DNA from: Candidatus Obscuribacteraceae bacterium
GTDB lineage: Bacteria; Cyanobacteriota; Vampirovibrionia; Obscuribacterales; Obscuribacteraceae
NCBI GenBank assembly: GCA_044229845.1
Contig: JBGASG010000002.1
Coordinates: forward strand, 64,001-128,000
Direction: 5' to 3'
DNA length: 64,000 nt
This document shows positions 3,006-22,923 of this stretch, in pieces. Positions within the stretch are counted from its first letter, which is position 1; each line of letters starts with the position of its first letter. The position numbers and the translations under genes are program-made. The notes under the pieces are model-generated. The model did not search any database and was not told the origin of the DNA. It saw nothing but the letters and a program-made list of their open reading frames with translations.

Positions 3006-3064
3006 GTTCTGCCGCGCGCTTGTCGAAGCGCACCGCACGCAACATCATCGGGAGTGGAATCACT

Positions 3065-6000
3065 ATGGGCGATCGTGGATTTGAAGGCGTAGTCAGTAAT
3101 ATTGTTCAACAACAGCAAGCTGCTGTATTCGATGTTCCGACACTGTTCGGCAATGGACCGAAAAACATTCCACAAATCGACGCACAAGTGCTCGAGAATG
3201 TAGGTCACGATTCTGTTCTTCAAAGTATGGCCAATTATCGCGTGGCGAGATTGGCGATGGTAACTGCGGATGGCGTCCGCTACTTACCTCAAGGTTTTGC
3301 AAATGCAGTTGAATATAACTTAGACCATCCCGGTGAAATGGCTCTCAAGGTTGGCGTAGCCGCGGGACTGGGACTGGCTATGCGCGCCATCCTGCCGAAG
3401 GCAGGTGCCGCTAAGGCGTTGGCGGGGACAATTATGGGCGCGTTCTTTATAAAAGATGCTGCCAAGCCGATCGTTCAAGGTTGGGCTGATGTGTGGGACA
3501 ACAAGTCGCTCGCCAATCTCGATCGCGCCGGACAGCGCATGGGTGATGGACTCGGCATGTTCGCGTTCGACAGCGCGCTGACCTTACCGGTCGGCATGCT
3601 GGCCGACAAAGCCGCCGGCATGACGCTCACCAAGACGAGCTGGGGCCGCTCGTTCGAACTGGGCAAAGAAAACTTCTACAACTCCGACGCCAGTGCGGTC
3701 GGTCGCTTCTTCAACTGGAGCACCCGCACCGCCGACAACACCAGCACTTATCTCTCGCAGCGCTTGCTGGGCAATGCGCCGCACGAAACACTGACAATAG
3801 ATCAGAAACTGGCGCTGATCGCCGATGCACAGCGCTCACATCTCACCGATGCGCAAGCCGCTCGCGCCGGCACTATAGATGATGCGTTCAAAGCGCAACT
3901 GGAAACACAGCGCCGCTACCGCATGGACATGCCCGATACCATCGAAGGATTGATGGCGGATGTTCCGGTCGGCGAACAAGCAAAGTTTGGTCTGACAAAC
4001 AAGGGGTTGGAAACACGCACCGCAACGACAGCAACTCAACTGGCCGCTGCGGAACTGGAAGCTGGTCTGGTTGCAAAACCGGGGCAGATGGGGCAAGGGC
4101 AAGGATTGTCTCCGGCGCGCTTTGTTGATGAAGGCGCAGGAACCGGTGGTGCAGGCAGGGGCACCGAGACTACTGGGGGCGATGCTCCTGGCACCGGAAC
4201 TGGCGGCAAAGGCACGCCGGTAGACAAACCGCCCGTAGTGGCAGAGCCGCAAGCTCCGCCGCTGCCGACCGGACCGAAGGTGCCGCTGGATGTGCGCGAC
4301 GTCGGCAACATGGCATCAGCCGTACGCGAACGCGCCGGTCAAGTCACCGAATCCGACATGGCAATCGCCGATCTGCGTGAGGGCTGGCAGTCGTCGATGC
4401 GCGCCACCACCCTGGAACCACCAGGACCACCGAAGCTGCCGCTGCTCGATCGCGGTCACTTCGAAAACAACAAAAATCTCATCGAGTTGGCGGATCAAAT
4501 TCGCACTCCGGAGCAGGTTAAGGAAGCCGGTTTCCTCATGGAACACTTCCGCGTCGCCAACCAGCAACTCGTCTTGAACGAGAAGTTGCCTGAGATCGTC
4601 GATCTGAACAACTACTCGCGTTCAGTCCACAACAAATTGATGGAGCTGTTGGTCAAAAATGGCGTCAAGCCGGAAGAAGTTCTGCGCGGCACCAACTCTC
4701 CGATGTTCCTGATCTTCGATTCACGCGCCGCGGGTCCCTACACCATTCCGGCGATCAAAGGCGTCACCGACACACCGGTGGTGGTGCTCCCGCGCGAATA
4801 CCAGAACATGCTGGGCGTGCACGTGGCAGGCGTCTACCCGCACGAACTGGGACACGATCTTATATATGGCGACTTGCTGCGTTTTCCAGAAACCCTGCGC
4901 AATAAAGTGCTCACCGAAGACGTTGTCTCGGCCGGCATGAAACAAGCAGGCATCCCCGACGTTCCGGTGAACGTCCCCGGTCACGGACTGATGCAAAAGA
5001 GCGAACTCTTCGTGCGCTTGCTGCAAGCTCAAGCCAATGAAAACACAGCAGATTGGTTTGGCACGGCAATCGATCCGAATACTGGTTTGTCGCTGGCGGT
5101 GCTCCTCGGCTCTCTCCGCAAACCTCTACCCGGTGCGCCGGCGGGAGCCGCGGGAGCTTTAGAAACCCGCAGCATGTACGGCAGCGAGTTTGCCGATCCG
5201 ACCAATCCGCTCGGCATCGAGCCGCACGGAATCGACAGATGGCGTCTGAAATCGACGGCACAAGTGCTGCGCGAAATGAGCGGCGGCGACAAAGCGATTC
5301 TCGAGCGCGCCACCAACATGGATCGCCTCGCAGAACAGATGGCACGCCCTGGCGAAACATACGCCTGGGCTAACATGGACAAGCCGGGTGAATACTTCGC
5401 AATTCCTCAAAAAGAGTGGGACGCGATTATTCCGGCGATTGTCAAAGCGCAACTCGATACGCCGCTTGACGCACTGAACGGACGCACGCTGCGTCAGGTA
5501 TTCCCTGACATGCGGCAGACCTTCCCGCGCGTCGATGCGCTCGCGGATCAGATGGCGGCTGCGGCTCTGGAAGGACGTCCCACTGTGATGGGCACATTCG
5601 ACAAGTCGGCGCACCGCATCGAAGATGTGTTCTCGGCTGGTCTCTCTGCCTGGGCGAAAGCCATGGAGAAAAATCCGGCGGCCGGTGAAAAAGGACACAT
5701 TGCACCCGACCAACTGATTTCGAATATCAACGCGATTTCGGAAAGTCTGCGCGCCCAATATCGCGGCGACGCGCCAATGCCGATTCCCGGCTTGACCACT
5801 CCCGGCAAGGTGGACTTCGCGACTGCATTCAAGAGACCGTCGTACTTCGTTCAGCAATATCTCGGCAAGGCAGTGGAAGCGCAGCCGCAGATTCGCGAAA
5901 CGGTCGGAAACTGGGAACCCTTCTTCACTCGCTACGTGGGCACGCAACTGGGACTGGCATTCTCAGGTGAAGATCTGCGCCGGCAGCGGGCAGCTAAATT

Positions 6001-6082
6001 CGGGTTCACGATCGACGATCACAGTGCCACCATTACGCCGCCTCCGGGCAGCGAGACGCAACCAAAGCAACGCGGTAATTGA
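3065..6082 (+). CDS. Large protein: hydrophobic N-terminal helices, Gly/Pro linker, C-terminal zinc metallopeptidase-like domain
   Basis: ORF 3020..6082; ATG 3065 has GGAG upstream; HELGH (HExxH) followed by NENTADWFG (ExxAD) and EPHGIDRWR, a gluzincin/M48-like motif order. Confidence 0.7.
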   Translation: MGDRGFEGVVSNIVQQQQAAVFDVPTLFGNGPKNIPQIDAQVLENVGHDSVLQSMANYRVARLAMVTADGVRYLPQGFANAVEYNLDHPGEMALKVGVAAGLGLAMRAILPKAGAAKALAGTIMGAFFIKDAAKPIVQGWADVWDNKSLANLDRAGQRMGDGLGMFAFDSALTLPVGMLADKAAGMTLTKTSWGRSFELGKENFYNSDASAVGRFFNWSTRTADNTSTYLSQRLLGNAPHETLTIDQKLALIADAQRSHLTDAQAARAGTIDDAFKAQLETQRRYRMDMPDTIEGLMADVPVGEQAKFGLTNKGLETRTATTATQLAAAELEAGLVAKPGQMGQGQGLSPARFVDEGAGTGGAGRGTETTGGDAPGTGTGGKGTPVDKPPVVAEPQAPPLPTGPKVPLDVRDVGNMASAVRERAGQVTESDMAIADLREGWQSSMRATTLEPPGPPKLPLLDRGHFENNKNLIELADQIRTPEQVKEAGFLMEHFRVANQQLVLNEKLPEIVDLNNYSRSVHNKLMELLVKNGVKPEEVLRGTNSPMFLIFDSRAAGPYTIPAIKGVTDTPVVVLPREYQNMLGVHVAGVYPHELGHDLIYGDLLRFPETLRNKVLTEDVVSAGMKQAGIPDVPVNVPGHGLMQKSELFVRLLQAQANENTADWFGTAIDPNTGLSLAVLLGSLRKPLPGAPAGAAGALETRSMYGSEFADPTNPLGIEPHGIDRWRLKSTAQVLREMSGGDKAILERATNMDRLAEQMARPGETYAWANMDKPGEYFAIPQKEWDAIIPAIVKAQLDTPLDALNGRTLRQVFPDMRQTFPRVDALADQMAAAALEGRPTVMGTFDKSAHRIEDVFSAGLSAWAKAMEKNPAAGEKGHIAPDQLISNINAISESLRAQYRGDAPMPIPGLTTPGKVDFATAFKRPSYFVQQYLGKAVEAQPQIRETVGNWEPFFTRYVGTQLGLAFSGEDLRRQRAAKFGFTIDDHSATITPPPGSETQPKQRGN

Positions 6083-7643: not shown

Positions 7644-8473
7644 ACGACGCGCGAGATGACGAATGCAATGAGCAGCTCGCCATCGCCATCGGAGCTGCGA
7701 CTTTGAACGTGCGGCGCATCCCGGCTGGGGGCGCCGGCGCGCCAGCAACGATTGTGTTTTTGCATGACTCGCTGGGATGCATCAAGTTGTGGCGCGACTT
7801 CCCTGATCGATTGTGCGCGGTCACCGGATGCAGCGGGTTGATTTACGACCGCCAGGGTTACGGCGAGTCGAGCCCGTTCACCGAAGCACGCGGATTGGAT
7901 TATCTCGAGCGGGAGGGCGATGCCCTCGTCGAGTTGTTGCGCCGCGAGGGCGAGCAGCGCAAAATCATCTTGTTTGGACATAGCGATGGCGGATCGATCG
8001 CGTTGATTGCCGCGGCTAAGTTGGGAGCAAGCACTGCGCCCGCAGTCGTTGGCGTGATTACGGAAGGGGCACATGTGTTCGTCGAGGATATCACCCTCGA
8101 CGGCATCAGGGCGGCGGTCGCGGAAAAGGCGCAGCTGGTGCCGCGGATCCACAAATACCATGGCGAGAAGTCCGAAGCCGTTTTCGATGCTTGGGCCGGC
8201 ACGTGGTTGAAGCCGGAATTTCGCGATTTCAATATGGAACATTTCCTGCCTGCCATTTCGTGCGACGTATTGGTGATTCAAGGTGAAGTGGACGAGTATG
8301 GCACCGAAGCGCAAGTCGACGCAATCATTGCCGGCGTGAGCGGAGCCCGCAAACATAAGTTGATGGTGCCCGGCGTAGGGCACACACCCCACCGCGACGC
8401 AGCCGATTTTGTGCTGGAAGCGTGCACCGACTTCATCGCTTCCGCGTCCGCTCACGCGCCCTCCAATACATAG
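7640..8473 (+). CDS. Alpha/beta hydrolase
   Basis: VFLHDSLG, YDRQGYGES, GHSDGG nucleophile elbow, IQGEVDEYG, GHTPH; TTG start overlaps the upstream TGA. Confidence 0.88.
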   Translation: MNDARDDECNEQLAIAIGAATLNVRRIPAGGAGAPATIVFLHDSLGCIKLWRDFPDRLCAVTGCSGLIYDRQGYGESSPFTEARGLDYLEREGDALVELLRREGEQRKIILFGHSDGGSIALIAAAKLGASTAPAVVGVITEGAHVFVEDITLDGIRAAVAEKAQLVPRIHKYHGEKSEAVFDAWAGTWLKPEFRDFNMEHFLPAISCDVLVIQGEVDEYGTEAQVDAIIAGVSGARKHKLMVPGVGHTPHRDAADFVLEACTDFIASASAHAPSNT

Positions 8474-8495
8474 GTAGAAAAGCCTCTGCAGCGCC

Positions 8496-8579
8496 GAATT
8501 TCGGTTTACCGGAAATTTGAGCTTCAGAATTCCGGCATACCGGAAATTTCGCTGTCTGAAAATCCGGTTTACCGCAGCG
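8496..8579. promoter_or_regulatory. Three phased palindromic operator-like sites (YCGG-N4-CCG)
   Basis: gaatttcggtttaccggaaatt (8496), gaattccggcataccggaaatt (8527), aaaatccggtttaccgcag (8559); 31-32 bp period; upstream of an XRE gene. Confidence 0.65.
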
Positions 8580-10913: not shown

Positions 10914-13900
10914 ATGAGTCACGAGAACCAGCACAAAAATCTGCCCAACGATCAAGCCAAAGAGGGCGACAAGCAACCATCCATAACCAGCGCCAAGACT
11001 GCTAACGAAAACATTACCGCCGAGCCGCAGGCACCGAGCTATGAGGCGAAGTTTCACTCATTCTCGAGCAGCAGTGATAGCACTGCCACCACCAGTGATG
11101 ACCAACCTCTCCTCGACTTGATCAAACGAGTGACCGGCGGAGGAAACAATACAGAAAGCCAGGGAAGGGCGGTTTCGGAATTCGCCATCGAAGATGCGGC
11201 ACAGGGAGTGGTGCACACCCATCGCGGCGCCGAACGTCTCGGTGCACAAGCGGAGAAGGCAGCGACCGCCGAGCCCGCGCCGCGCCAGTCATTTCTGGAT
11301 GGCTTGAAGAAAATCTTCGACCACGCCTCGTCGCCGGAAGAGCGCGAGCAGATGCAGAGCGCGTTCTCAATTGATTACATGATGCGCAAAGCAAAAGAAT
11401 TCATCGGCGATGTGCAATCTCTGATCACCGGCAAACCTGTCGCTGTGGAGAAACTGCCATACGACCCCTCTACCGGTGCCGATGTGCAACCACTGCCGTT
11501 TCGTCCGGGAGAGAAGGACTCCCAGCCGGTGCCAATGATCATTCGCGAGCGCATGTCACCCGATGAACCGGAAGCCGCTCGCAGCCTGGGAGTGCAAATC
11601 ACTGAGGCTGTGATAAACGCAGCTGGTGCGGATGCATACAATCCGAGCACCGGCACGTTGCAGAATGACGCCGGCGGCGACACCGCCGAGGACAAATCAG
11701 CAGTGCCACCACGGCCGCCTCGTCCGGGAGAGGAGGACGCTCGCCAGCGGGAAGAAATGATAATCCGCCAGCAGATGTCACCAGGTCAAACCGAATCTCT
11801 TCGACTCGGTGGGCAATTCGCTCAAGCCGCAATCGATGCCACCGGCGCAAATGCATACAATCCGAACGCCGGCACATTGCCGATTGACTCCGCGGGGCGT
11901 CCGAGCACCGCCGAGGACAGATCAACAGTGCGACCACATCCGCCTCGTCCGGGAGAGGAGGACGCTCGGCGGGAGGAAATGATCATCCGCCAGCAGATGT
12001 CACCAGGCGAATCCGAAGCCCGTAGAGTCGGCGGGCAATTCGCTCAAGCCGCAATCGATGCCACCGGTGCACGACCATTCCGTCCGGGCATCGACGACGC
12101 CAAAGTCGAGACGCTGCCGTACAAACCCGGCGACAACGACCAGCCAGTACAACAAATAATTCGCGAACAGATCTCAGCTGACTTTCATGCAATCGGAGCA
12201 CTGGGAAACTCACTATCAGATTTCATAACTCAATCAGGCGACCGGATAGCAGGCGTTGTCCAAAGTGCACTGGACTATGCTCAGGATGGACACAAGAAGG
12301 GCGACAGCGCTCCCGCGAAAACCATTCCTCCCGATGGCAGCCTCCCGCAGTACGAAGCTGCACGCGGCGTGTTCCGCGAATACCTCAAGCATGCTTACTC
12401 GGGCGAGCCGGAGCTAACACACTGCATGGTTAAAGCCGGTTTACGGGAGACCGGGAGGTATGAGAAGCTTGTCGACATTGCAGACAATAATCTTCCCAAA
12501 TCAGCAACGCAGCAGCAGCAAGAAGCTTACGTGAAAGAGATCATTCGCGTAAATGGACTTAAACCGTCAGATGGATTTGCTCCACCTGACTCGGTGCTCT
12601 TGCTGCCTGGACACGATGGGAAAGGACACATCATTGTCAGCATCGGCGGACAGACCGTCACAACGGATCAGAGTAACACACGCGTAATCGATACCGGCGG
12701 ATTCCGCACTACAACCCTCACTTCTGATGGTGAACAACACGCAGGTCCAGGTCCATCAGACGGATTTTTTGTACAGAAGGACAAAAACGGCGCGAAACAT
12801 TTTTTTGAGAGACCAGGCAGCCGCGAATTACAGACGAGCGTTGAACCACACATTCAAGAAGCACATAAGCACCTTCTCGAACTGGCTGCCAAACGGATTT
12901 CAGACCCTGAGGACAGGCTGAAGTTCGAAGTAGATATGGCAAGATTCGAACAGCGGGCCGCCGATGCTCATCTGCCACCAAATTCAGTCGTCGATACCTA
13001 CAAAAACATCGAACGACTTCTCAGCGCAGACCACGGGGCGGGACACATCAATAAGCTGGCGATGATTGACCTGGCAGAAGAAGTGATGTCTCAGGCAGCG
13101 CGACCTCGAACTATCACCCAAGGAGGATTTAAAACTTGCCACGTGACGGCTATCGAGTACCACATGTACCGCTTCGACCCTGCTGAAGCATCCAGACTCG
13201 TCGCAGACGTTGCTTTGACAGGTAGGTTCAAATCATCAGACGGGACATCAATCGATTTCAATGATGGTGGCATTCTAGCAACCAACCTGAATACCAAAGA
13301 ACAGGGCACCGCAGATGGTGAACGGACCCTGGCTACCCAACTCTTCAACGGCACCACGGTAAATCTCGTTTATCAAAAGGAAGGTGGTGAGAAGAAGTAC
13401 GGTCTTGTTACACCCAACAGAAAGGACCATGGCGACTCCGGCGAGCGCCTCTTCGAAGACGGAGTAGAAATTGATCGTGACCCCGACCTGAATGACGATC
13501 AAGTCGTGAGAGCATACCGAATCCTGACTCAGCCGATACAAAAGGCTGGCTCACCGGAACCAGAAAGTGTCTGGAACCAATTACAACGTCGTCATGCTAG
13601 CCATGAGGAAATTGTCGAAACATTGAAGAAGAGTGAGTGTGTCTACATCTGCAACGCTGACCTTGCGACTGGCGACCGCAAACTGGTTGACTTGGTTCAC
13701 AGCGAAAAAGAATTCTGCTCGCTACTTCAGTGTCTTAAAGAAGCCGGTAAGCTTCCAGTGATGCTCGGAGTTCACACAGCCATTGAGCCCTTTTATACGG
13801 ACTCAGAAGGAGAAAAGCTCGGCGGTGCCGGAGGCCCACATGTTGTGACAATCACAAATTTCCAAAACCCACCAGGACTTGTCGCCATCGACAATCAATG

Positions 13901-14324
13901 GTTCTCGATGATGGATCACACATCTACTGACATCTCGCTGCACCAACTATACCTCTCAACCCTGGAGCCAAAAACGGCCTTAAGTGAGATGCAGCAAACC
14001 GCAAGTGCCAATCGCAACCGGAACCAGATTGATACCGAACTTGAGCTTGACATAGCACGTCTACGCCGTCGGACTGAACAAACCGACGATAGTGACTATG
14101 GATGGGATGTCGCAAAACTGATGAAGGAAGCAAAGCTTCGATGGGAAGAACAGAAGAAAAGCCACACGTTCAATCCAGCAGAACAGCAAAGGGCGCTGCG
14201 CAAGTTTAAGCTGATGAGATCAAATTGGCAAAAGGATTCAGAGCGAGCATTTGGCGAGGGCGATTTGAATAACTGGGATAGGATGATGAAACATGGACGC
14301 AAATCGATAAATGATCCGCAATAA
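10914..14324 (+). CDS. Repeat-containing LysM + papain/calpain-like cysteine peptidase protein
   Basis: LysM-like segment (LVDIADNNL...EIIRVNGL...VLLLPG); ITQGGFKTC (C742), GGPHVVTI (H976), IDNQW (N994); no signal peptide. Confidence 0.72.
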   Translation: MSHENQHKNLPNDQAKEGDKQPSITSAKTANENITAEPQAPSYEAKFHSFSSSSDSTATTSDDQPLLDLIKRVTGGGNNTESQGRAVSEFAIEDAAQGVVHTHRGAERLGAQAEKAATAEPAPRQSFLDGLKKIFDHASSPEEREQMQSAFSIDYMMRKAKEFIGDVQSLITGKPVAVEKLPYDPSTGADVQPLPFRPGEKDSQPVPMIIRERMSPDEPEAARSLGVQITEAVINAAGADAYNPSTGTLQNDAGGDTAEDKSAVPPRPPRPGEEDARQREEMIIRQQMSPGQTESLRLGGQFAQAAIDATGANAYNPNAGTLPIDSAGRPSTAEDRSTVRPHPPRPGEEDARREEMIIRQQMSPGESEARRVGGQFAQAAIDATGARPFRPGIDDAKVETLPYKPGDNDQPVQQIIREQISADFHAIGALGNSLSDFITQSGDRIAGVVQSALDYAQDGHKKGDSAPAKTIPPDGSLPQYEAARGVFREYLKHAYSGEPELTHCMVKAGLRETGRYEKLVDIADNNLPKSATQQQQEAYVKEIIRVNGLKPSDGFAPPDSVLLLPGHDGKGHIIVSIGGQTVTTDQSNTRVIDTGGFRTTTLTSDGEQHAGPGPSDGFFVQKDKNGAKHFFERPGSRELQTSVEPHIQEAHKHLLELAAKRISDPEDRLKFEVDMARFEQRAADAHLPPNSVVDTYKNIERLLSADHGAGHINKLAMIDLAEEVMSQAARPRTITQGGFKTCHVTAIEYHMYRFDPAEASRLVADVALTGRFKSSDGTSIDFNDGGILATNLNTKEQGTADGERTLATQLFNGTTVNLVYQKEGGEKKYGLVTPNRKDHGDSGERLFEDGVEIDRDPDLNDDQVVRAYRILTQPIQKAGSPEPESVWNQLQRRHASHEEIVETLKKSECVYICNADLATGDRKLVDLVHSEKEFCSLLQCLKEAGKLPVMLGVHTAIEPFYTDSEGEKLGGAGGPHVVTITNFQNPPGLVAIDNQWFSMMDHTSTDISLHQLYLSTLEPKTALSEMQQTASANRNRNQIDTELELDIARLRRRTEQTDDSDYGWDVAKLMKEAKLRWEEQKKSHTFNPAEQQRALRKFKLMRSNWQKDSERAFGEGDLNNWDRMMKHGRKSINDPQ
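11450..12190 (+). repeat. Intragenic ~220-bp (~74 aa) tandem repeats, 3-4 copies
   Basis: RPGEEDAR..EEMIIRQQMSPG...GGQFAQAAIDATGA recurs; cgtccggg at ~11502, 11721, 11946, 12081. Confidence 0.85.
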
Positions 14325-15009
14325 ATTGCCCAACCTTTTAATCGTGCTCCTCGCTTCAATCCTCTTGGTCCAATGCGGAACTCAAACCGCAACCGAAAAC
14401 AAGAAAAAAGGAAAAACCCAAGAAATGCCTCTGAAGCCTGCTCTCAAACACGGCATCGCAGGAGTCGGAGCGGTGAGCCGATTTAGAGTTCCGGACAACT
14501 GGGAATTGACCCGCCACGCAGAGGACGCGCGCGGCTACGGTTACACCTGGAAGCCACTCGGGGAAAAGGACGTCTCTCTCAATGTCTCGTGGGACGGCGG
14601 TATTGTGATGCGTCCTCAGCCAATTCAAGAAATTTTGACCCAGGCTCCGCACGCGTTATCACGCGAGGAAATTGAATCAATCAGGAATCTCCTGGGAGAA
14701 AGGGCGTCTGCCGAAGCTTTCAAGGTTGAAACAGCGAAGACCGAGGATGTTTCTGGATATCGCGTTCTGCGACTATCCGGAACTTACACTGATCAAGACG
14801 TCTACGAAGACACAATTTTTGTCAACTCAGGCGGTGATTGCAGCGGCTTCCAAGAGGTTTCTTTTCTCTCGCCTGCCGCCGATGCAGCGAAGTATCGCAA
14901 AGATGCGGATCAAGCGTTCTCTACTTTGAGAATTGAAGAGAGAGTTCCTGTTCCTAAAGATCCGGCAACCGACACCGCCGATGATACCAGCTCTGATTCA
15001 CCGATATAA
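14311..15009 (+). CDS. Exported (possible lipoprotein) PsbP/Mog1/DcrB-like domain protein
   Basis: Signal peptide ending LLVQC (atypical lipobox); FRVPDNW...GYRVLRLSGTY...QEVSFLSP...AFSTLRI pattern; overlaps the upstream gene by 14 nt. Confidence 0.65.
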   Translation: MIRNKLPNLLIVLLASILLVQCGTQTATENKKKGKTQEMPLKPALKHGIAGVGAVSRFRVPDNWELTRHAEDARGYGYTWKPLGEKDVSLNVSWDGGIVMRPQPIQEILTQAPHALSREEIESIRNLLGERASAEAFKVETAKTEDVSGYRVLRLSGTYTDQDVYEDTIFVNSGGDCSGFQEVSFLSPAADAAKYRKDADQAFSTLRIEERVPVPKDPATDTADDTSSDSPI

Positions 15010-15234
15010 CGGCACCACTGGCGCTACCAGTGAAGACGCCAGTTTGTTCCACTAATTCCGCCGCCTGCATCCGACTGCACATATGCGGTCTGTCCAAGCG
15101 CGCGACAGTTTCTTCGAAGCGAGTCCGACAATGCCAAGTAGAAGGAGCAAAGGCTTGCTTAACCTGCTGTCTGATGACAACGCATCACGGTATACTAGAA
15201 ATCCTGCTTTTAATTAGTTGGAGATGTGTCTGCA

Positions 15235-17829
15235 ATGGGTCGCGACGACGAGAAGCCGAGCAAGAAGAGCGACTCTTTAGTTGGCGGCTTCATGAAGAAG
15301 ACGCAGGGTTTCCTGAAGTCGGCGTTCCAGGGCGACAAGGCGGGTGGCGGCGCGGCGGCGGGGACCGGAAGCGGAGCCGCCGGTGCTTCGACAGCCGACC
15401 TCGACACAGACTCCGGCACGGGCGCCGCCCCGTCGGCAGATAGCGCGACCGCTGGAACAGTTGCGCAAGCCGAAGAAAAATCGGCATCCGGTGACAAACC
15501 GCAGAAAGGCGGTCTGTTGGGCGGCAAACTGCCCGGGCTCGGCGGCGGCAAGGACAAAGACAAGGACAAAGACAAGGACAAAGCCAGCGCCTCGGCAGAA
15601 ACGCTTGAAGACTGGGCAGGACTTCAAGAAGTCATCGATGAAAAGGTGCAAACCCAGGTTTACCAGGAGCAGTCCGAGTCTGCGTACACGGGCGAAAAGC
15701 CCCTCGCCAAGTCGTCCATCCCTCCCGGCACCTACGCAACCAAAGCCGGGGACACATTTTTATCCATCGCCGAACAACACCTCGGTCCCAAATCGAAAAA
15801 GCCCGACCGCGAGGCATACGCGCGAGAAATCCAGCTGATCAACGGATTGCCTCCGGGCAAAGAGCTGCCGCCCAGCCTGCCGCTGGTGCTGCCGGGACAC
15901 ACCAGGGATGGTGGCTTCGTGATTGCCGACGGCGCCAAAACAATCACCAAGTTCCCCAGCGGCGTCAAAGTTTTCGAAAACGAAGACGACCAGCGCAAAG
16001 GCACCCAGACTCCGGGCACAGACGGCAGCTACACCGAAGAACACACCGGTCCGGGCGCCGCCGACAACTATTTTGTTTCGAAGAACGCCGAAGGCGAGTT
16101 TCAGTATTCGGAGAAGTCCGCGAGCGAACCTTACCAACTGATTCAGGACGAAGCGGTGCAAGCCGCTCACCAGAAGTTGCGCGACCTCGCCGACAGGCAC
16201 ATCGTCGAGCAAGCCGAGAAAACCAAGTTCAACGTGGACATGGCGCGCTTCGAAGACCGGGCGACGAAACGAAACCTGGCCAACGCCGCCGTCATCGAGA
16301 CCTACAAACAGATTTCGCGCCTGCTGGAAGCTCCGGTTCCCGGCTTTGGCGATCGGGGGCTGCGCGCGCCCGTCAACAAACGGCTGCAACTGGCGCAAGA
16401 GTTGCTCGCTCAGTCGGCCGAGCCGAAGACTGTTTGTCAGGGCACTTTCAGCCGCGGTAGCCTGGCTGCCATCGAGCACCATGTCTACCTCGCCGATCCC
16501 GCGAAGATCTGCCGGTTGGTGGTCGACATCGCATTGACCGGAAAGTTCACCGCCACCGACGGCACCAGCCACACGATGTCGCCCGAGTCACTGGAGCCAC
16601 AGTCGCAGCCCAACACAGTTGAAGATGGCTTGCGTTCATTCGCCACGCAACTCTTCCAAGTTGCGATTGCCAACCTCGCGCATGAGAGCGTCGGCTTGCG
16701 CAACACGCCGCAGACCCAGGAAGGCGCCGACAAAAAATATTCCATCGAACCGCTCGATCGCTTGCTCGAACAAGACAACGGCGAGCGGCTTTACGACAAG
16801 GTCAACGGCAAGTGGGAATTGACGGGCGAATCGCCCGGGCTCGACGACGACAAGACAATCGGTTGCTACCTTCTGGTCATGGCCCGCGGCGGCGAGACCT
16901 ACAAAGCCGTCAACAGCACCGCCGAAATGATGAAGTGGTTGCCCGGTCGCACTGGCGTCGGTGTCATGATCGGACACGAAGACCACATCTTCGGATTCGG
17001 CAAATTGCTTGATACCATCAGCAGCGAACGCGACCTGATGTACAAAATCTCCGACATCTCAAAATCCAATCGCCTGCCGGTATTTATTAGAGTGCACACC
17101 GGCAACGAACCCTTCTTGTCCGAGTCGGGCAATCAAACCGCCGGCGGTGCAGGCAACTGGCACGTGCTGGCAATCACCTCATACGAACCGAGCGCTGACG
17201 GCAAGCCAGCTTCCGTCACCATCGACAATCCCTGGCGCGCACGTGCGGAACAACGCAGTGCGACTCTGACTCTGCCCGAATTGCACAAGTCCACCACCTT
17301 GCCTGAGAGAGTCGAGCCGGTATCCGGAAGCGCCGTTTCTAACCTCGGTGCAATCGAAAGCTTCACCGTCCCGGAAGGCTGGAACCTTGGGCGCCGCTCG
17401 GAGCGCGCCTACGGCTACATCTATGCATGGCAGCCGCAGGCACAGACAAACGTCTCACTCAACATCAGCTATCGCGGTCGCCCGCTTTCCGATGCCGATG
17501 CAGCCAAGTTAAAATCAACACTCTCCGGCGGACCGCGCACGCTCTCATCCCATGAAGTTCACGCTCTCAGTGGCACGGTCCGCGAACTGGCAAGCTCCTC
17601 TGCGTTCACTATCAACTCGGCCAAAGTCATCGACGTGGACGGCGTCGCAGCGCTGGAAGTCACCGGCGCATACAAAGATCAATATGTCGACAAGCACGCA
17701 CTGTTCATCAACGCCGACGGCGCCGGTCGCATTGTGCAAGAGATCTCATACATCGCACCGCGCGACAAATATGCAAACTTCGTCGCGACTGCAAAATCAG
17801 CACTGGCATCTCTAAAGCTGAAGAAGTAG
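15235..17829 (+). CDS. LysM + inactive papain-like domain + C-terminal PsbP/DcrB-like domain fusion
   Basis: TYATKAGDTFLSIAEQHL...INGL...LVLPG LysM; collinear paralogue of 10914..14324 with QGTFSRGS replacing QGGFKTCH; last ~160 aa align with the 14311 and 20676 products. Confidence 0.72.
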   Translation: MGRDDEKPSKKSDSLVGGFMKKTQGFLKSAFQGDKAGGGAAAGTGSGAAGASTADLDTDSGTGAAPSADSATAGTVAQAEEKSASGDKPQKGGLLGGKLPGLGGGKDKDKDKDKDKASASAETLEDWAGLQEVIDEKVQTQVYQEQSESAYTGEKPLAKSSIPPGTYATKAGDTFLSIAEQHLGPKSKKPDREAYAREIQLINGLPPGKELPPSLPLVLPGHTRDGGFVIADGAKTITKFPSGVKVFENEDDQRKGTQTPGTDGSYTEEHTGPGAADNYFVSKNAEGEFQYSEKSASEPYQLIQDEAVQAAHQKLRDLADRHIVEQAEKTKFNVDMARFEDRATKRNLANAAVIETYKQISRLLEAPVPGFGDRGLRAPVNKRLQLAQELLAQSAEPKTVCQGTFSRGSLAAIEHHVYLADPAKICRLVVDIALTGKFTATDGTSHTMSPESLEPQSQPNTVEDGLRSFATQLFQVAIANLAHESVGLRNTPQTQEGADKKYSIEPLDRLLEQDNGERLYDKVNGKWELTGESPGLDDDKTIGCYLLVMARGGETYKAVNSTAEMMKWLPGRTGVGVMIGHEDHIFGFGKLLDTISSERDLMYKISDISKSNRLPVFIRVHTGNEPFLSESGNQTAGGAGNWHVLAITSYEPSADGKPASVTIDNPWRARAEQRSATLTLPELHKSTTLPERVEPVSGSAVSNLGAIESFTVPEGWNLGRRSERAYGYIYAWQPQAQTNVSLNISYRGRPLSDADAAKLKSTLSGGPRTLSSHEVHALSGTVRELASSSAFTINSAKVIDVDGVAALEVTGAYKDQYVDKHALFINADGAGRIVQEISYIAPRDKYANFVATAKSALASLKLKK

Positions 17830-17850
17830 ATTACGCCTGCGGGCTTACTG

Positions 17851-20325
17851 CTACTGCCCCGATGCAAACACATCTCCCTCACCTGTCGTTCTCGGGAACG
17901 GCACGGAACTGCGCGAGTACGAGTAGTTATTGCTTGGAACATATTTGATCAGCTTGACCGGTTCAGGAATGTTTTGCACCGTCTCGATCGCGTGGCGCAA
18001 CTTGCCTTTCGCATTGTCGGCTGCGTATAACTGCATCAATCGCACAAATTGCACGCTAACCTCATAAGAGCCATCGCTCTGCCGCACGCGCTTCTCCAGT
18101 AGTTTACGCGCGTCCGCACGCTTGCCGTGTTTCTCCAGCAGGTCGACATAGCGCAACAGCTCATCGCGATAAGACCATTCGTCCTCGGCGACCAGATCGA
18201 ACAGCCGCTTGTACGCGACAAGCGCTTCTTCGTCTCGTCCATTGTCCTGATAGCAGCAGGCCAGATCGGCTAAAGTTGACGCCAACAATACGTCATCTTT
18301 ACCCCATGCTTCCTGGCGAATTTGCAGTTCTCTCCGCAGAGGGGCAATTGCCTTCTGCCCTTCGATGCGCGTCACACGGCGCAAGCATTCCTCTTTGTAA
18401 TGGTTGTCCAGATCCGATATCGCGGAGGTAAATTGGTAAAAGTTACCAGTGGTGTCGCGATCGAAATACACGTGCGCTGCTTCTAAGTTGCCGTCCTCCA
18501 GAGCTCGACAAGCGAGCGCCACCATCGTATCGTTTTCCTCAGGCAGATATCCCAGCTTCACCAAAGTGGGAGCGAGATCATCAACTTCGGGGTTCAGCGC
18601 GCCTGCATTGCCGTAATGATAATCAGCCAACTCGAAGTAATGAAGCGCTTTCTCAGGAGGCAGCGCCTGTCCCAACTCAGTATTTGCCCGACCGGCATAA
18701 TAGCTGATCTCCTGATCATTGAAGTCCTTCAAGAAACCAGCGGCCACTTTCGCGCATTGCGCATACATTTTCTTTTCGAATAGAGTGCGCACCTTTTCAC
18801 GCGCAGCATCCTGAGGGTCAAGCAACTTTTCGGGGTCGCTCTGCTGCAACCACAGTTGAGCCATTTGCGCCACCAGCATCATTTCATATGAGCGGTAGCT
18901 GGTGCCGTGTTCATAATACTTGCTCGCCGCTTCATAGTGTTTGAGAGCCTCTTCTCTCATGGCATTGCGAGCTTTATCATTGCTGGATTCGTACACCTGA
19001 GCAGCGAGAGAATCAGCCACTTGCCAGTGCAACTCAGCTTGCAAACTGGGCGGCTTGTGGAGAGATTCGGACAGCGCGAGAGCCTGTTTCCACGCGGCGG
19101 ATTCCTCGGGGCGATGACTGCTGCCTGCCAGCTGGGCCGCATCGATCGATTTCTGCAACTGCAGTTCGCCCATGTACTTCTGACAGACCAGTCCGAGCAG
19201 AAGATACGCGCACATGCAGACAACGATCTTCTTGTCGAAGAAATCGAGAAACCTGAAAAGCAAGAGCTTCTCCGCCTTGGGCGGCAGCTTGCGCGTCACA
19301 CCGTTGCAGATGCAATCGGAAACCATGCGCAACGCATCCATCAACTCGCGCACGTTTCGAAAGCGCTTCGCCGGTTTCTTCTGCAAACACTTGATGATTA
19401 TGCAATCAAGCAACTTCAGCGCGTTATACTCCGGCGTGTCCTTGCCGTGCTGACTAGCCAGTTCGTGCAGATAGCCAGCGGACGCATGACCCGACTGATC
19501 GCCGACAAATGGCGGTCTGCCGACCAGCGATTCATACATCAGGCAACCCAGCGAATAAATATCCGAGCGTTCGCTGACGCGGTTGCGGTCGAGACACTGT
19601 TCAGGACTGAGATAAAATGCGTTTTGCACCGGGTCCGGTGGCATGCCAAAATCGATCAGCTTGACCAATTCGGCATCGGTATCTTCTTGATGAACAACAA
19701 TCACTTTGTTCGGCGAGAGGTTGCCGTGCACCAGCTGGTGCGAATGTGCTTCCCCGAGAGCTTCGCAAACCTGCATGAACACATTGAGAAACGTGGCGAT
19801 GTCCAGGCGTTTCGTGACCAGAAAAGTCTCGGCGAGGGTCTCGCCCTCGACCCAATCCTTCACCACATATGGTGCGCCGTCGTCGCCGACACCACACTCG
19901 TACACGGTGACATGGTTGACGTGAGTCAGTTCCGATGCACGTTGCGCCGCCTTCTTGATATTGCGCACCTGGGCGCTGTCGGTCAATCTGGCATTGAATA
20001 CGCGCAATGCGAAGATGCCGTCCATGCCGTCGCGTTTCGCCGCCCATGTGGTGCTGAGCGCATCGCGACACAACTCCCACACGAGCTCATAACTCCCGAA
20101 ACGCTGCACCGGCTCGCGGGCGTCACCGCAGGTTTCTTCCTGAGGCTTTCCGCCGCTTTCATGACTAACTGGTGGCGCAACCAATTTTATGGCTGCGCCG
20201 CCCGTACTTGGTTCGGGTTCGCTGTCTTCGTCGACGCTATGGAGAGATTCGCTGGGAAAACCGGTCTCGGACACCAGGGCGACACCAGGCCGCTGGTCGT
20301 GGCTTGCTCGACTTTTTCTTGTCAT
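17851..20325 (-). CDS. Membrane-anchored Ser/Thr pseudokinase with C-terminal TPR region
   Basis: Hanks-type fold (KLIDFG, YLSPEQ, SDIYSLGC, GRPPF) with degenerate catalytic motifs; one TM (IVVCMCAYLLLGLV); TPR-like repeats; likely start ATG 20325. Confidence 0.8.
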   Translation of the reverse strand: MTRKSRASHDQRPGVALVSETGFPSESLHSVDEDSEPEPSTGGAAIKLVAPPVSHESGGKPQEETCGDAREPVQRFGSYELVWELCRDALSTTWAAKRDGMDGIFALRVFNARLTDSAQVRNIKKAAQRASELTHVNHVTVYECGVGDDGAPYVVKDWVEGETLAETFLVTKRLDIATFLNVFMQVCEALGEAHSHQLVHGNLSPNKVIVVHQEDTDAELVKLIDFGMPPDPVQNAFYLSPEQCLDRNRVSERSDIYSLGCLMYESLVGRPPFVGDQSGHASAGYLHELASQHGKDTPEYNALKLLDCIIIKCLQKKPAKRFRNVRELMDALRMVSDCICNGVTRKLPPKAEKLLLFRFLDFFDKKIVVCMCAYLLLGLVCQKYMGELQLQKSIDAAQLAGSSHRPEESAAWKQALALSESLHKPPSLQAELHWQVADSLAAQVYESSNDKARNAMREEALKHYEAASKYYEHGTSYRSYEMMLVAQMAQLWLQQSDPEKLLDPQDAAREKVRTLFEKKMYAQCAKVAAGFLKDFNDQEISYYAGRANTELGQALPPEKALHYFELADYHYGNAGALNPEVDDLAPTLVKLGYLPEENDTMVALACRALEDGNLEAAHVYFDRDTTGNFYQFTSAISDLDNHYKEECLRRVTRIEGQKAIAPLRRELQIRQEAWGKDDVLLASTLADLACCYQDNGRDEEALVAYKRLFDLVAEDEWSYRDELLRYVDLLEKHGKRADARKLLEKRVRQSDGSYEVSVQFVRLMQLYAADNAKGKLRHAIETVQNIPEPVKLIKYVPSNNYSYSRSSVPFPRTTGEGDVFASGQ

Positions 20326-20675
20326 GTTTTGTTTGTCTACTAAGGGTGGAGGAGAGAGGAGCGAAGGCTCCGTCGTTGAATGGCGTCGAGTATATTGCCA
20401 GGTTGCCAAGGGGCAAATAGGGTTAACACTGGATTTGGACACCCCGGACCAGAACGGACGCAACTCACGCGAATAATTGATGTTTTTCGCGTGTCGTCGA
20501 TGGCGCCGAGCAGACCCACCGGGCATCCCGGAGCCTACGAGCGCCCCAGGGAAGTCTGATGAGTGATAACCGTCACCCTCGGGCACATAGTTAATATCGG
20601 CAGGATTGATTGTGCAGGCGAACACAATTAATATTGACAACTAATTCCTCACGTCATTTATGGAGCCAGACGACC

Positions 20676-21320
20676 ATGGCAGGAGCCGGGGAACAAGACA
20701 TCCCTAAACCCAGAAAAATCGGCGGCGGCGACGAAACCGGCGACGCAGCGATTAACCAGAAGGTCCAGAAGGAATCCGGCGACGCCCCTCCGGCGACGCC
20801 ACCCACCGAGGTCACCGATGCCGGTGCCAAAAACCTCGGCGCCATCACATCTCTGGACGCTCCGGCTGATTTCAAACTGACCACCAAGGTGGATACAGCC
20901 CTGGGCTACACATATATGTGGACGCCGCCCGGACGCAAGGACGTTTCCGTCAGCGTCAGCAGCCGCGCACAAGATCTGAACGCCAACGACACCAAAACAC
21001 TCAACGACATTCTCGCCAAACCAGATGGCTACGTGCTCAGTCCGCAAGAGATCCAGTCGCTGCAAGGGCTTTTGCGCGAGAAAGCGGATCCCAGCAAATT
21101 CACTACTTCGCTCGTGTACGTCCGCGAAATCGAAGGCAAGAAAGTCTTGAGCCTCGCAGGCGAATATGACAAAGAGAAAATCCACAACGAAACGCTGTAC
21201 ATCCCGGCTAACAGGTCAGGCAGCGCCATCCAGGAAGTCGCATACCAGGCTCCCATCGGAGTCAATCGCTGGGGCGACGCAGCCGGCAAGTCGATGGATT
21301 CGATCAAACTGAAGAACTGA
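20676..21320 (+). CDS. Stand-alone PsbP/DcrB-like domain protein without signal peptide
   Basis: NLGAITSLDAP...GYTYMWTP...VLSLAGEY...IQEVAYQAP...SIKLK aligns with the 14311 product and the 15235 C-terminus; GGAG before ATG 20676. Confidence 0.7.
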   Translation: MAGAGEQDIPKPRKIGGGDETGDAAINQKVQKESGDAPPATPPTEVTDAGAKNLGAITSLDAPADFKLTTKVDTALGYTYMWTPPGRKDVSVSVSSRAQDLNANDTKTLNDILAKPDGYVLSPQEIQSLQGLLREKADPSKFTTSLVYVREIEGKKVLSLAGEYDKEKIHNETLYIPANRSGSAIQEVAYQAPIGVNRWGDAAGKSMDSIKLKN

Positions 21321-21465
21321 AGAACTGAAGAACTGATCGCCTGCCCCAAGAGCGATGCGTCAGTTTTGATGCAGGAAACCGGTTTTTTGCTTGTGGATCC
21401 CCTCTGAAAAGCCATCTCGCAAGCAGATTTTGCCTGACTTGCGTCAAATCTGACGCAAGAGGGCG

Positions 21466-22923
21466 TTAGTCGTTGCGACGACCCAGGTCATCGACCTGGT
21501 TAGCTTGGTCTTTAGTCAGGAGCACGTACTGTTCGACGCGCAGGGCGCTGAGCGGCAATCCCAACATCGCATCGCGAGGCGGAGCATGCGGAGCGACATT
21601 CGGCGACAGCCAGTCGCCTGGCGACACCGGCTGCGGCTCAGGACTGACGAACACCCCAAGTTCCACGATGGAAGGATTCCAGACAGACTTCTCGGAGTTC
21701 CAGATCGGCTCCGCCCAGGCAAAGTTCGAACGCAGATCATTGCTGTCGACGTTGAAAAACTGAGTCGACATGCCGTACGCGCTCATCACGACCGGGTAGC
21801 TGTCGCGCTGATCTGAAGGTCGCAAATCGTAGAGGCGATTTTTGAGATTTAAGAGTGTTGTCCCAAATGCAGTCTTGCTGCCGGGAATGACGAAGAAACT
21901 GCGCACCGATTTCCGGTTGTCTCCGAATTGCAAAAGGGTCTCATCGTCCATCAACTTATTCAGCCGATCTTCGGAAATCGGCATCGGGTATGGCAACACA
22001 CTGAGTGGATTGTCGCCGGGCAACTGCGTCAGGGCCCGCTGGTAAATCACATCAGCGGCATCCTTGTGTCCATGCCGGTCCAGCGTTGCCGCCGCCATCA
22101 TTGATTCGAATTGCACATAGGGCAGATCGGGCGCACGGTACTTCGCCAGCGCAAACGCCGCCATGGCGCGCCGGTCGCGTTTCAGCGCTTCGTACAAAAC
22201 GGGATCGCCGACTTCCTGCTCGCTGACCTTCATGCGCCGCGCCCAGAAAAGCGCAATGCCATGCAGCCGCCTGGCCGTAGCGAAGTCGCCTTTCTTGAGA
22301 GCGATATCACGCATGGTGGCAACTCTGGTAGCGGCATAGCGGCGCGAAACCAGTCCTTCCATAAATGCAGTCGCCCGCACCAGGGGCGTCGGCAACAACC
22401 TGCCTTTGCGCGCCGCCGAATCCAGCGGCACCGAGGCGAGAAACGTGACCAGCAACCAGCAAAGTGGTGCCAGCCAGAGTCCGCGAATGACACGAAACTT
22501 GCGGTTAGACATCGGTGCCGGCGGAATGGCGCGATACCAGCGCGGCGCGGCAAGGTGAACCAGGAACAGCGCCAGGCAGATCAACTGGAAATAAGCCACC
22601 GCATGCAAAAACACATGCATACCGGTCAAGGGACGAAACATCGCATCGATGTAGAACACGAAGAGCGATGAGGCAAGAAACATGAAGCCGACAACCGCCG
22701 CCTTTGTGCCGCGCAACACGCGCCACCAGCGACCGCGGCGAAACTCGCCGGTGTCCATCCACACCGGTGCGATTGCCCCGGGTGAGATTGCCCCGGCTGA
22801 CGCAGCCTGTCCGGACTCAGAAGCAGGTTTCTCCAGCGCCGTAGACTCCCCCACCGGAGATGGCTCCCCCACCGGAGATGGCTCTCCGCCCGGCGCCGCA
22901 GCGGATTCCGCCTCCGCCGCCAT
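21466..22923 (-). CDS. Hypothetical membrane protein (about 3 TM helices plus helical soluble domain)
   Basis: Long ORF with three hydrophobic segments; GEPSPV repeats at the N-terminus; start uncertain. Confidence 0.6.
   Translation of the reverse strand: MAAEAESAAAPGGEPSPVGEPSPVGESTALEKPASESGQAASAGAISPGAIAPVWMDTGEFRRGRWWRVLRGTKAAVVGFMFLASSLFVFYIDAMFRPLTGMHVFLHAVAYFQLICLALFLVHLAAPRWYRAIPPAPMSNRKFRVIRGLWLAPLCWLLVTFLASVPLDSAARKGRLLPTPLVRATAFMEGLVSRRYAATRVATMRDIALKKGDFATARRLHGIALFWARRMKVSEQEVGDPVLYEALKRDRRAMAAFALAKYRAPDLPYVQFESMMAAATLDRHGHKDAADVIYQRALTQLPGDNPLSVLPYPMPISEDRLNKLMDDETLLQFGDNRKSVRSFFVIPGSKTAFGTTLLNLKNRLYDLRPSDQRDSYPVVMSAYGMSTQFFNVDSNDLRSNFAWAEPIWNSEKSVWNPSIVELGVFVSPEPQPVSPGDWLSPNVAPHAPPRDAMLGLPLSALRVEQYVLLTKDQANQVDDLGRRND

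Follow-up and report, generated by a model that had tools for sequence, protein, structure and literature searches.

A locus at positions 10914 to 21320 of the window, the 64,000-nucleotide stretch of Candidatus Obscuribacteraceae DNA analyzed here (G000:C8:64001-128000, where G000 is the source genome, 88% complete), is interpreted with a probability of about 0.6 as a polymorphic toxin-immunity site. An exported protease toxin and an immunity protein that binds it would be exchanged here as one cassette, and additional immunity copies would lie behind the pair. The open reading frames (ORFs) of all five genes were recovered where an initial annotation of the DNA had placed them. P0001 (10914..14324, + strand) encodes a predicted polymorphic toxin of 1136 amino acids (aa), and P0002 (14311..15009, +) encodes its partner, a predicted cognate immunity protein with a lipoprotein-like signal peptide. 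The other genes are P0003 (15226..17829, +), a catalytically dead protease paralog in direct fusion with a partner domain (17329-17826); P0004 (17851..20325, − strand), a membrane pseudokinase; and P0005 (20676..21320, +), an orphan partner. The protease and partner apparently constitute a new toxin family and a new partner family within the polymorphic toxin-immunity kind. A literature search in which subscription journals were mostly outside coverage yielded no paper that deals with these families or with Obscuribacterales toxins, and the supplements of Zhang et al. (PMC3482391) could list related domains.

Predicted folds of the protease and its partner

P0001 is composed of a shared N-terminal module, a low-complexity region, a LysM-like domain (aa 496-570; 12399..12623, +), a beta-rich linker, a papain-fold protease and a helical tail (13971..14276, +) that occurs in a subset of the protease family and is absent from P0003. 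Structure modeling assigned a helical subdomain and the papain-fold catalytic domain to aa 641-1019 (12834..13970, +). The catalytic residues are Q736, C742, H976 and N994, and the four positions are invariant in 62/62 aligned sequences. The model, with a predicted local distance difference test (pLDDT) value of 85, matched structure 2btw best (Z 9.1, root-mean-square deviation (rmsd) 3.4, 160 residues aligned), with further matches to a C39 domain (Z 8.2), PeiR (8.1), UfSP1 (7.9) and calpain (7.6), and the 50 best structural matches were mostly papain-fold enzymes. These Z values are middling, but the invariant Q, C, H and N residues agree with a papain fold; as modeled, P0001 carries a papain-fold Cys-His-Asn domain with an oxyanion Gln. 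A Foldseek search with the model returned nothing at E ≤ 0.001, and sequence searches against solved structures gave only values of E ≥ 0.2, with matches to cathepsin and caricain that cover the His-Asn part. Pfam and NCBIfam provided no name for either the protease or the partner domain. The Tox-PL models of Pfam matched none of the 62 protease family members, and the Peptidase_C39_2 profile matched 4/62 (best E = 7e-4) and not P0001.

P0001 and P0003 had been described initially as two collinear proteins with LysM and papain-like domains. The collinearity holds (32% identity over 614 aa, E = 7e-77), as does, for P0001, the predicted papain fold. The LysM assignment stands by way of a paralog and family profiles: Pfam LysM gave no direct match in P0001 or P0003, the corresponding segment of a paralog at C1:959633, linked to P0001 by profile, matches Pfam LysM with E = 4e-4, and 24/62 members of the family have a LysM match at E ≤ 0.1. 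Iterated profiles located 15 protease ORFs at 14 loci in G000, with one gene split, and up to 34 protease matches occur per genome. The domains ahead of the protease in other members are RHS repeats, annexin-like repeats, FHA or LysM, and the protease ends the protein in several members (tails of 0-17 aa). Four proteins (L158, L162, L167 and L108) have two or three protease domains per chain, and the longest open frame of the family, 18,420 aa, has a protease domain near its end (L169, G020:C1:168335-169381).

The partner domain indeed is present three times in the locus, as first noted. The copies are 27-32% identical with 28 invariant columns across ~165 aligned aa, the second and third being 32% and 27% identical to the first, and pairwise tblastn comparisons gave E = 1e-18 to 1e-28. 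The model of the P0002 domain (pLDDT 95) was matched best by the cyanobacterial PsbP structure 2xb3 (Z 13.4, rmsd 3.6, 143/164 aligned), and additional matches were to TplEi (Z 9.6), an immunity protein that blocks a lipase, DcrB (9.4), the immunity protein Tsi3 (7.8) and SciW (7.2). The Foldseek E value of the partner model was 4e-5 and that of its EagT6 match was 2.5e-4. An Atlas model of the 20676 copy gave template modeling (TM) scores of 0.62-0.68. On the strength of these models the partner domain has the Mog1/PsbP fold that had been proposed; no sequence match to any solved chain was found. The suggested membership in DUF1795/DcrB was rejected, as the PF08786 profile for that family matched 1/109 partner members at E = 0.087.

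The P0002 gene start overlaps the protease stop by 14 bases, in agreement with the initial annotation. The predicted product begins with a hydrophobic segment ending in Cys that is kept in two relatives (P0204 and P0206) and resembles an export signal, and the gene start is uncertain because the database gene call (P0006) starts at a later Met. P0005 bears a 48-aa hydrophilic extension and belongs to the same subfamily as the other two window copies. The partner family comprises 536 clusters at 50% identity, and 16 partner domains were found in G000 by iterated profiles. Among 150 matches, 8 have a signal-like segment, 81 are long with a hydrophilic extension, 53 are short, 2 are intermediate and 6 lie in longer proteins. 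Other fusions include a doubled partner (P0014), a partner behind a helical-repeat region (P0090), and one that precedes a segment resembling, by eye, the His half of the protease (P0150).

Linkage, co-descent and cassette exchange

The partner directly follows the protease at 10/14 protease loci in G000, at one of them by fusion. Linkage was also assessed in 40 relatives, 27 of the order and 13 of other orders, for which the listing covered 150 of the 288 protease matches and each of the 141 partner matches; the count outside the genus leaves out G000 and G001, a second genome with near-identical flanks around the locus. A same-strand partner was located ≤1.5 kb downstream at 36/122 protease matches listed, in 18 genomes of 18 genera, compared to a chance expectation of ~0.07, which bears out the linkage in related genomes that had been envisaged. 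The partner was upstream at two of these 122 matches and on the opposite strand at none. Artifact or chance was rejected as the source of the observation. The protease occurs in 27/27 genomes of the order and the partner in 24/27, and each in 0/13 of other orders. The pair also was present at 5/12 metagenome loci, and two proteins (P0018 and P0020) consist of an intact-Cys protease fused to the partner. A survey of 300 additional genomes from the phylum detected no partner, and 47 of these genomes possess distant, partial, often multi-copy protease relatives. Seven such relatives that were examined (L175-L181) are open frames of 390-520 aa in which the Cys motif is present and near which no partner is located.

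Co-descent was followed with 43 complete pairs from 40 regions chosen for holding a pair, together with the G000 loci. Protease and partner distances were correlated (Spearman 0.39, 43 pairs), with none of 2000 permutations as high. Quick trees of the two families were in agreement at the level of subfamilies, which are shared across genera: a six-row protease clade (P0001, P0003, C1:959633, P0018, P0020 and P0188; support 100) was mirrored by an eight-row partner clade that contains all three window copies (support 95), and a 12-row protease clade reappeared in a 13-row partner clade.

Exchange of the pair is evident in one comparison, G000 with G001. G001 is 97.5% identical to the window up to position 12381 and 99.3% identical from 15124. 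Between these flanks it carries a different 3.3-kb stretch in place of 12382..15123 (no strand assigned), which delimits the exchangeable cassette as the LysM-protease-tail half of P0001 plus the whole of P0002. The G001 stretch consists of a diverged LysM-protease-tail region with several frame switches, a broken partner and then a second partner that is intact, 227 aa long and anchored at its N-terminus; the best protease pieces are 31-37% identical and the partners 27-40% identical to those of G000. Because both elements are present there in diverged form, the toxin half and the partner were replaced together. The partners of both alleles at the locus carry a signal or anchor segment. As a control, 40 kb of the remaining window was collinear with G001 at 97-100% with two exceptions, a break between contigs and an inserted stretch of 105 bases. 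Upstream, at about 8440-8570, there is one 0.7-kb insertion. The GC content of the G000 cassette is 50.7% compared to 58.3% in the first part of the P0001 gene. The identity of P0188 to P0001 is 85-90% within aa 1-400 and falls to 39-78% beyond, a sequence pattern that suggests a third allele and shows the G000 arrangement to be no assembly chimera. Elsewhere, the protease gene at L011 (G000:C8:513364-515132) is split by a frameshift and its G001 counterpart (L174) is a single 612-aa frame.

The N-terminal module at aa 59-175 of P0001 (11088..11438, +) is common to eight ORFs of G000, P0001 and seven others, with profile values of E = 1e-37 to 1e-49, and is a candidate export or trafficking module. 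Six of the module-bearing ORFs were compared at their C-termini, which differ. JAB-like HxH motifs with a weak Prok-JAB match (E = 0.007) occur among these C-termini, as do motifs which, by eye, we take to be caspase-like. The genes next downstream of module-bearing ORFs are mostly small membrane-protein genes, with five paralogous genes in one case. At L148 (G000:C8:656259-668075) a 2319-aa protein with the shared module and annexin repeats precedes a tandem array of five kinase-like paralogs, each ~325 aa long. At L145 (G000:C15:150999-157749) three tandem genes have near-identical module N-termini, and the membrane-protein gene behind each of them is a different one; two of the three were compared and have unlike C-termini, and the array likely is a toxin-immunity array.

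Dead paralog, pseudokinase and neighboring genes

The description of P0003 as a dead protease is sustained by the presence of Gly at the Cys position (aa 411), with the His and Asn kept. P0003 does not have the shared N-terminal module and probably starts at the ATG at 15235. The fusion was found in 2/104 genomes of the family, plus P0008, and is genus-restricted. The five-gene cluster that the initial annotation had treated as one system consequently was rejected as a conserved unit. The dead core is 97-98% identical to P0008 over aa 401-600 compared to 64-89% elsewhere, and 9/9 variants listed in one low-depth contig are synonymous. P0003 seems to be kept by selection because the dead core is its best-conserved part and all of these listed variants are synonymous.

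P0004 matches its earlier designation as a membrane pseudokinase with tetratricopeptide repeats (TPR): Arg replaces the ATP-binding Lys and Asn the catalytic Asp, there is one hydrophobic segment, and the C-terminus is TPR-like with weak TPR matches. G000 holds ~100 kinase genes; seven of 99 aligned kinase domains are without the catalytic Lys or Asp, and P0004 alone is without both. A single ortholog outside the genus was detected among 40 relatives (G022, 53% identical), and no protease or partner was found within 27 kb of it. Membership of the pseudokinase in the system therefore was rejected, also in view of the many kinase genes in the genome, and P0004 is regarded as a neighbor. Low-depth contigs from four RNA runs touch all five genes, the 20676 gene in three studies; the runs were picked by this stretch and DNA carry-over is possible, and the contigs are not counted as expression. 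Fourteen DNA datasets containing the stretch may themselves be its sources and likewise were left out of the evidence.

Elsewhere in the window, positions 3020-6082 (+) encode a 1020-aa protein with a hydrophobic N-terminal part and a HELGH zinc-peptidase-like motif (weak M6 match, E = 0.1; no Pfam match) that is possibly another exported effector. Two short stretches, an intergenic one at ~21340-21470 and one at ~19500-19610 inside the kinase gene, each recur several times at other places in G001 with 72-86% identity; the intergenic stretch may be a repeated element.

Proposed mode of action, rival explanations and export

In the toxin-immunity scheme, P0001 would be exported by a route that may recognize the shared N-terminal module, and its C-terminal papain-fold domain would harm a rival cell through cleavage or acyl modification of a target. 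The PsbP-fold product of the next gene would bind and neutralize the protease. Recombination would replace the protease half and the partner together, so that the pairs would vary among strains of one species. Extra immunity copies of the same subfamily would be provided by P0005 and by the partner domain within P0003, and the dead protease itself may act as a scaffold or decoy. The initial annotation had proposed an effector/partner module for competition; linkage, predicted fold and cassette exchange uphold this, and export, toxicity, the target, binding and neutralization are properties that we infer.

Polymorphic toxins combine a conserved N-terminal carrier, a variable C-terminal enzyme, RHS-type repeats, a small downstream gene and cassette exchange (PMC3482391). 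At the present locus a common N-terminal carrier with variable C-termini, joint replacement (in one comparison, with a frameshifted allele) and a linked small downstream gene were found, so that carrier, variable end, downstream gene and exchange are alike in such systems, including those of Tox-PL1, Tox-PL2, Tox-PL3 and Tox-PLC39, and here. The protease differs from the Tox-PL families in lacking matches to their Pfam models and in its C-H-N triad with an upstream Gln, and the order differs from usual hosts of such systems in having no marker of type VI or type III secretion systems (T6SS, T3SS) and almost none of types IV or VII (T4SS, T7SS). Cpe1/Cpi1 is a papain-fold antibacterial toxin with a downstream immunity gene (PMC12136450), and Cpe1 (PMC12136450) and StbD-CT (bioRxiv 10.64898/2026.05.07.723447) cut GyrB and ParE. 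Cpe1/Cpi1 and StbD-CT/StbI resemble the pair here in having a papain-fold C-terminal toxin followed by an immunity gene, and the StbD domain (8ssm) is a structural neighbor of the protease (Z 7.4, rmsd 2.9, 124 aligned). However, the Cpe1 and StbD-CT domains are C39-type, ~140 aa in length, possess a C-H-D triad and are delivered by T6SS or contact-dependent inhibition (CDI), whereas the length of the domain here is ~350-380 aa, which includes a helical subdomain. StbI is described as having two helices and a sheet of five strands (bioRxiv 10.64898/2026.05.07.723447), and it contributed no chain to the best 50 structural matches of the partner. TplEi and Tsi3 share the Mog1/PsbP fold with the partner, and Tsi3, which has a signal peptide and blocks a muramidase (PMC3792639), is exported like the predicted form of P0002, whereas most partners here are without a signal peptide. 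The spare immunity copies proposed here have a parallel in Vibrio cholerae, in which orphan immunity genes form arrays (PMC5361080).

Several observations weigh against the toxin-immunity interpretation. Four of the 14 protease loci in G000 are without a partner, and no partner was detected within 1.5 kb of 86/122 protease matches listed outside the genus; fragmented assemblies and profile sensitivity explain some share of these. In at least two giant proteins (L129 and L168) the protease is internal and further domains come after it, an arrangement that a processing peptidase would be expected to have. Many frameshifts interrupt the G001 cassette, which is thus a decayed or poorly assembled allele. 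The mixed locations predicted for partners from their sequences would be unusual if a single toxin family acted in a single target compartment, and the same PsbP/Mog1 fold also serves the T6SS chaperones EagT6 and SciW. Tree congruence signifies long co-inheritance and not binding because linkage alone can yield it. Finally, no known delivery machine was found with markers for T3SS, T4SS, T6SS and T7SS; markers of T1SS, T2SS, two-partner and T9SS secretion were not searched for. Prediction of the complex between P0001 aa 641-1136 and the P0002 domain gave scores of 0.35, 0.01 and 0.17, which count neither for nor against binding.

The partner instead might be a chaperone or adaptor like the Eag/DUF1795 proteins that binds the effector before export, pilots or stabilizes it, and perhaps is co-exported. 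Structural matches to EagT6, SciW and DcrB are in keeping with such a role, as are the location of EagT6 and SciW genes beside effector genes and the description of PsbP/MOG1 proteins as adaptors beside toxin genes (Zhang et al. 2012; PMC3482391). Moreover, the form of the partner tracks the size of the carrier: a short partner follows 9/9 protease ORFs of >2000 aa and a long partner 28/31 ORFs of 650-1250 aa. However, Eag chaperones bind the membrane segments of prePAAR effectors (PMC12881460), and neither P0001 nor any of 46 longer relatives has a 19-aa segment above 1.6 or a PAAR match. The PF08786 match and the T6SS sheath are missing as well, the partner comes after the protease irrespective of the type of carrier, and both alleles here encode a signal or anchor segment. 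A profile of the long-partner extension had no match among 46 protease N-termini (best E = 0.044), which lends no support to a common export signal. A chaperone role is considered unlikely. It also is rather improbable that the protease mainly is a self-processing peptidase that frees parts of large exported proteins, with the partner as a safety catch. Giant proteins in which the protease domain is internal or repeated (L129, L168, L158, L162, L167 and L108) would fit this role, papain-like domains act as releasing peptidases in polymorphic toxins (PMC3482391), and StbD-CT self-cleaves and kills (bioRxiv 10.64898/2026.05.07.723447). Yet P0001 has no other recognizable catalytic domain, several family members end in the protease, and a sole C-terminal peptidase is a toxin by the criterion of Zhang et al. 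(PMC3482391).

Effectors directed at eukaryotes, whether these are prey or hosts (algae or protists, for instance), might be deubiquitinase-like enzymes that the partner restrains in the producer. They are suggested by UfSP, ZUFSP and Josephin-like structural neighbors (Z 5.5-7.9) and by the sibling protein with the weak Prok-JAB match. These Z values are in the range of common arrangements, however, and LysM together with strain-level exchange of the pair would point to bacterial rivals; this possibility is very improbable. The least probable explanation is a resident proteolytic signaling circuit with pseudoprotease and pseudokinase as scaffolds, which also had been floated initially. The strong conservation of the dead protease core and its synonymous variants would accord with such a circuit, whereas the pseudokinase ortholog in G022 lies away from protease and partner and the dead fusion is confined to 2/104 family genomes. 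In addition, modules of this sort would not be expected to be swapped as low-GC cassettes, and the circuit fits poorly with cassette replacement.

With respect to export of the putative toxin, P0001 has no signal peptide and no membrane segment. TssC was detected in 0/41 genomes (28 of the order and 13 others), on which basis the T6SS context that had been suggested was rejected. FlhA/SctV was present in 0/28 genomes of the order compared to 13/13 of other orders in the class, which indicates that the lineage with the expanded toxin families lost the flagellar/T3SS export gate. VirB4 was found in 2/41 genomes, and WXG100 was over the cut-off in 1/41. A tail-tube search gave no match anywhere and its control likewise was silent, so that it says nothing on extracellular contractile injection systems (eCIS). 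G000 possesses two Tad clusters (C19:379077-386095 and C22:232082-239113) and a PilT-like ATPase, and Tad pili as the export route are a guess. A wider view, which is tentative and which we regard as possible but doubtful, is that the Obscuribacterales maintain a large arsenal of polymorphic toxins and export it by a pathway other than T3SS, T4SS, T6SS and T7SS, perhaps their Tad pili, which would read a disordered N-terminal module. The PsbP-fold partner then would be a dedicated protease inhibitor that is made in three forms (cytoplasmic, anchored in the envelope, and co-exported), and the conserved dead fusion would serve as a decoy to absorb proteases arriving from rivals or the targets of these proteases.

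The absence of standard delivery machines in 28 genomes raises the question of how the proteins leave the cell. The two strain alleles at one locus allow a comparison of cognate with non-cognate rescue. Overall, the protease and partner constitute a candidate weapon system in a lineage that is sister to the cyanobacteria, has not been cultured and has received little study.

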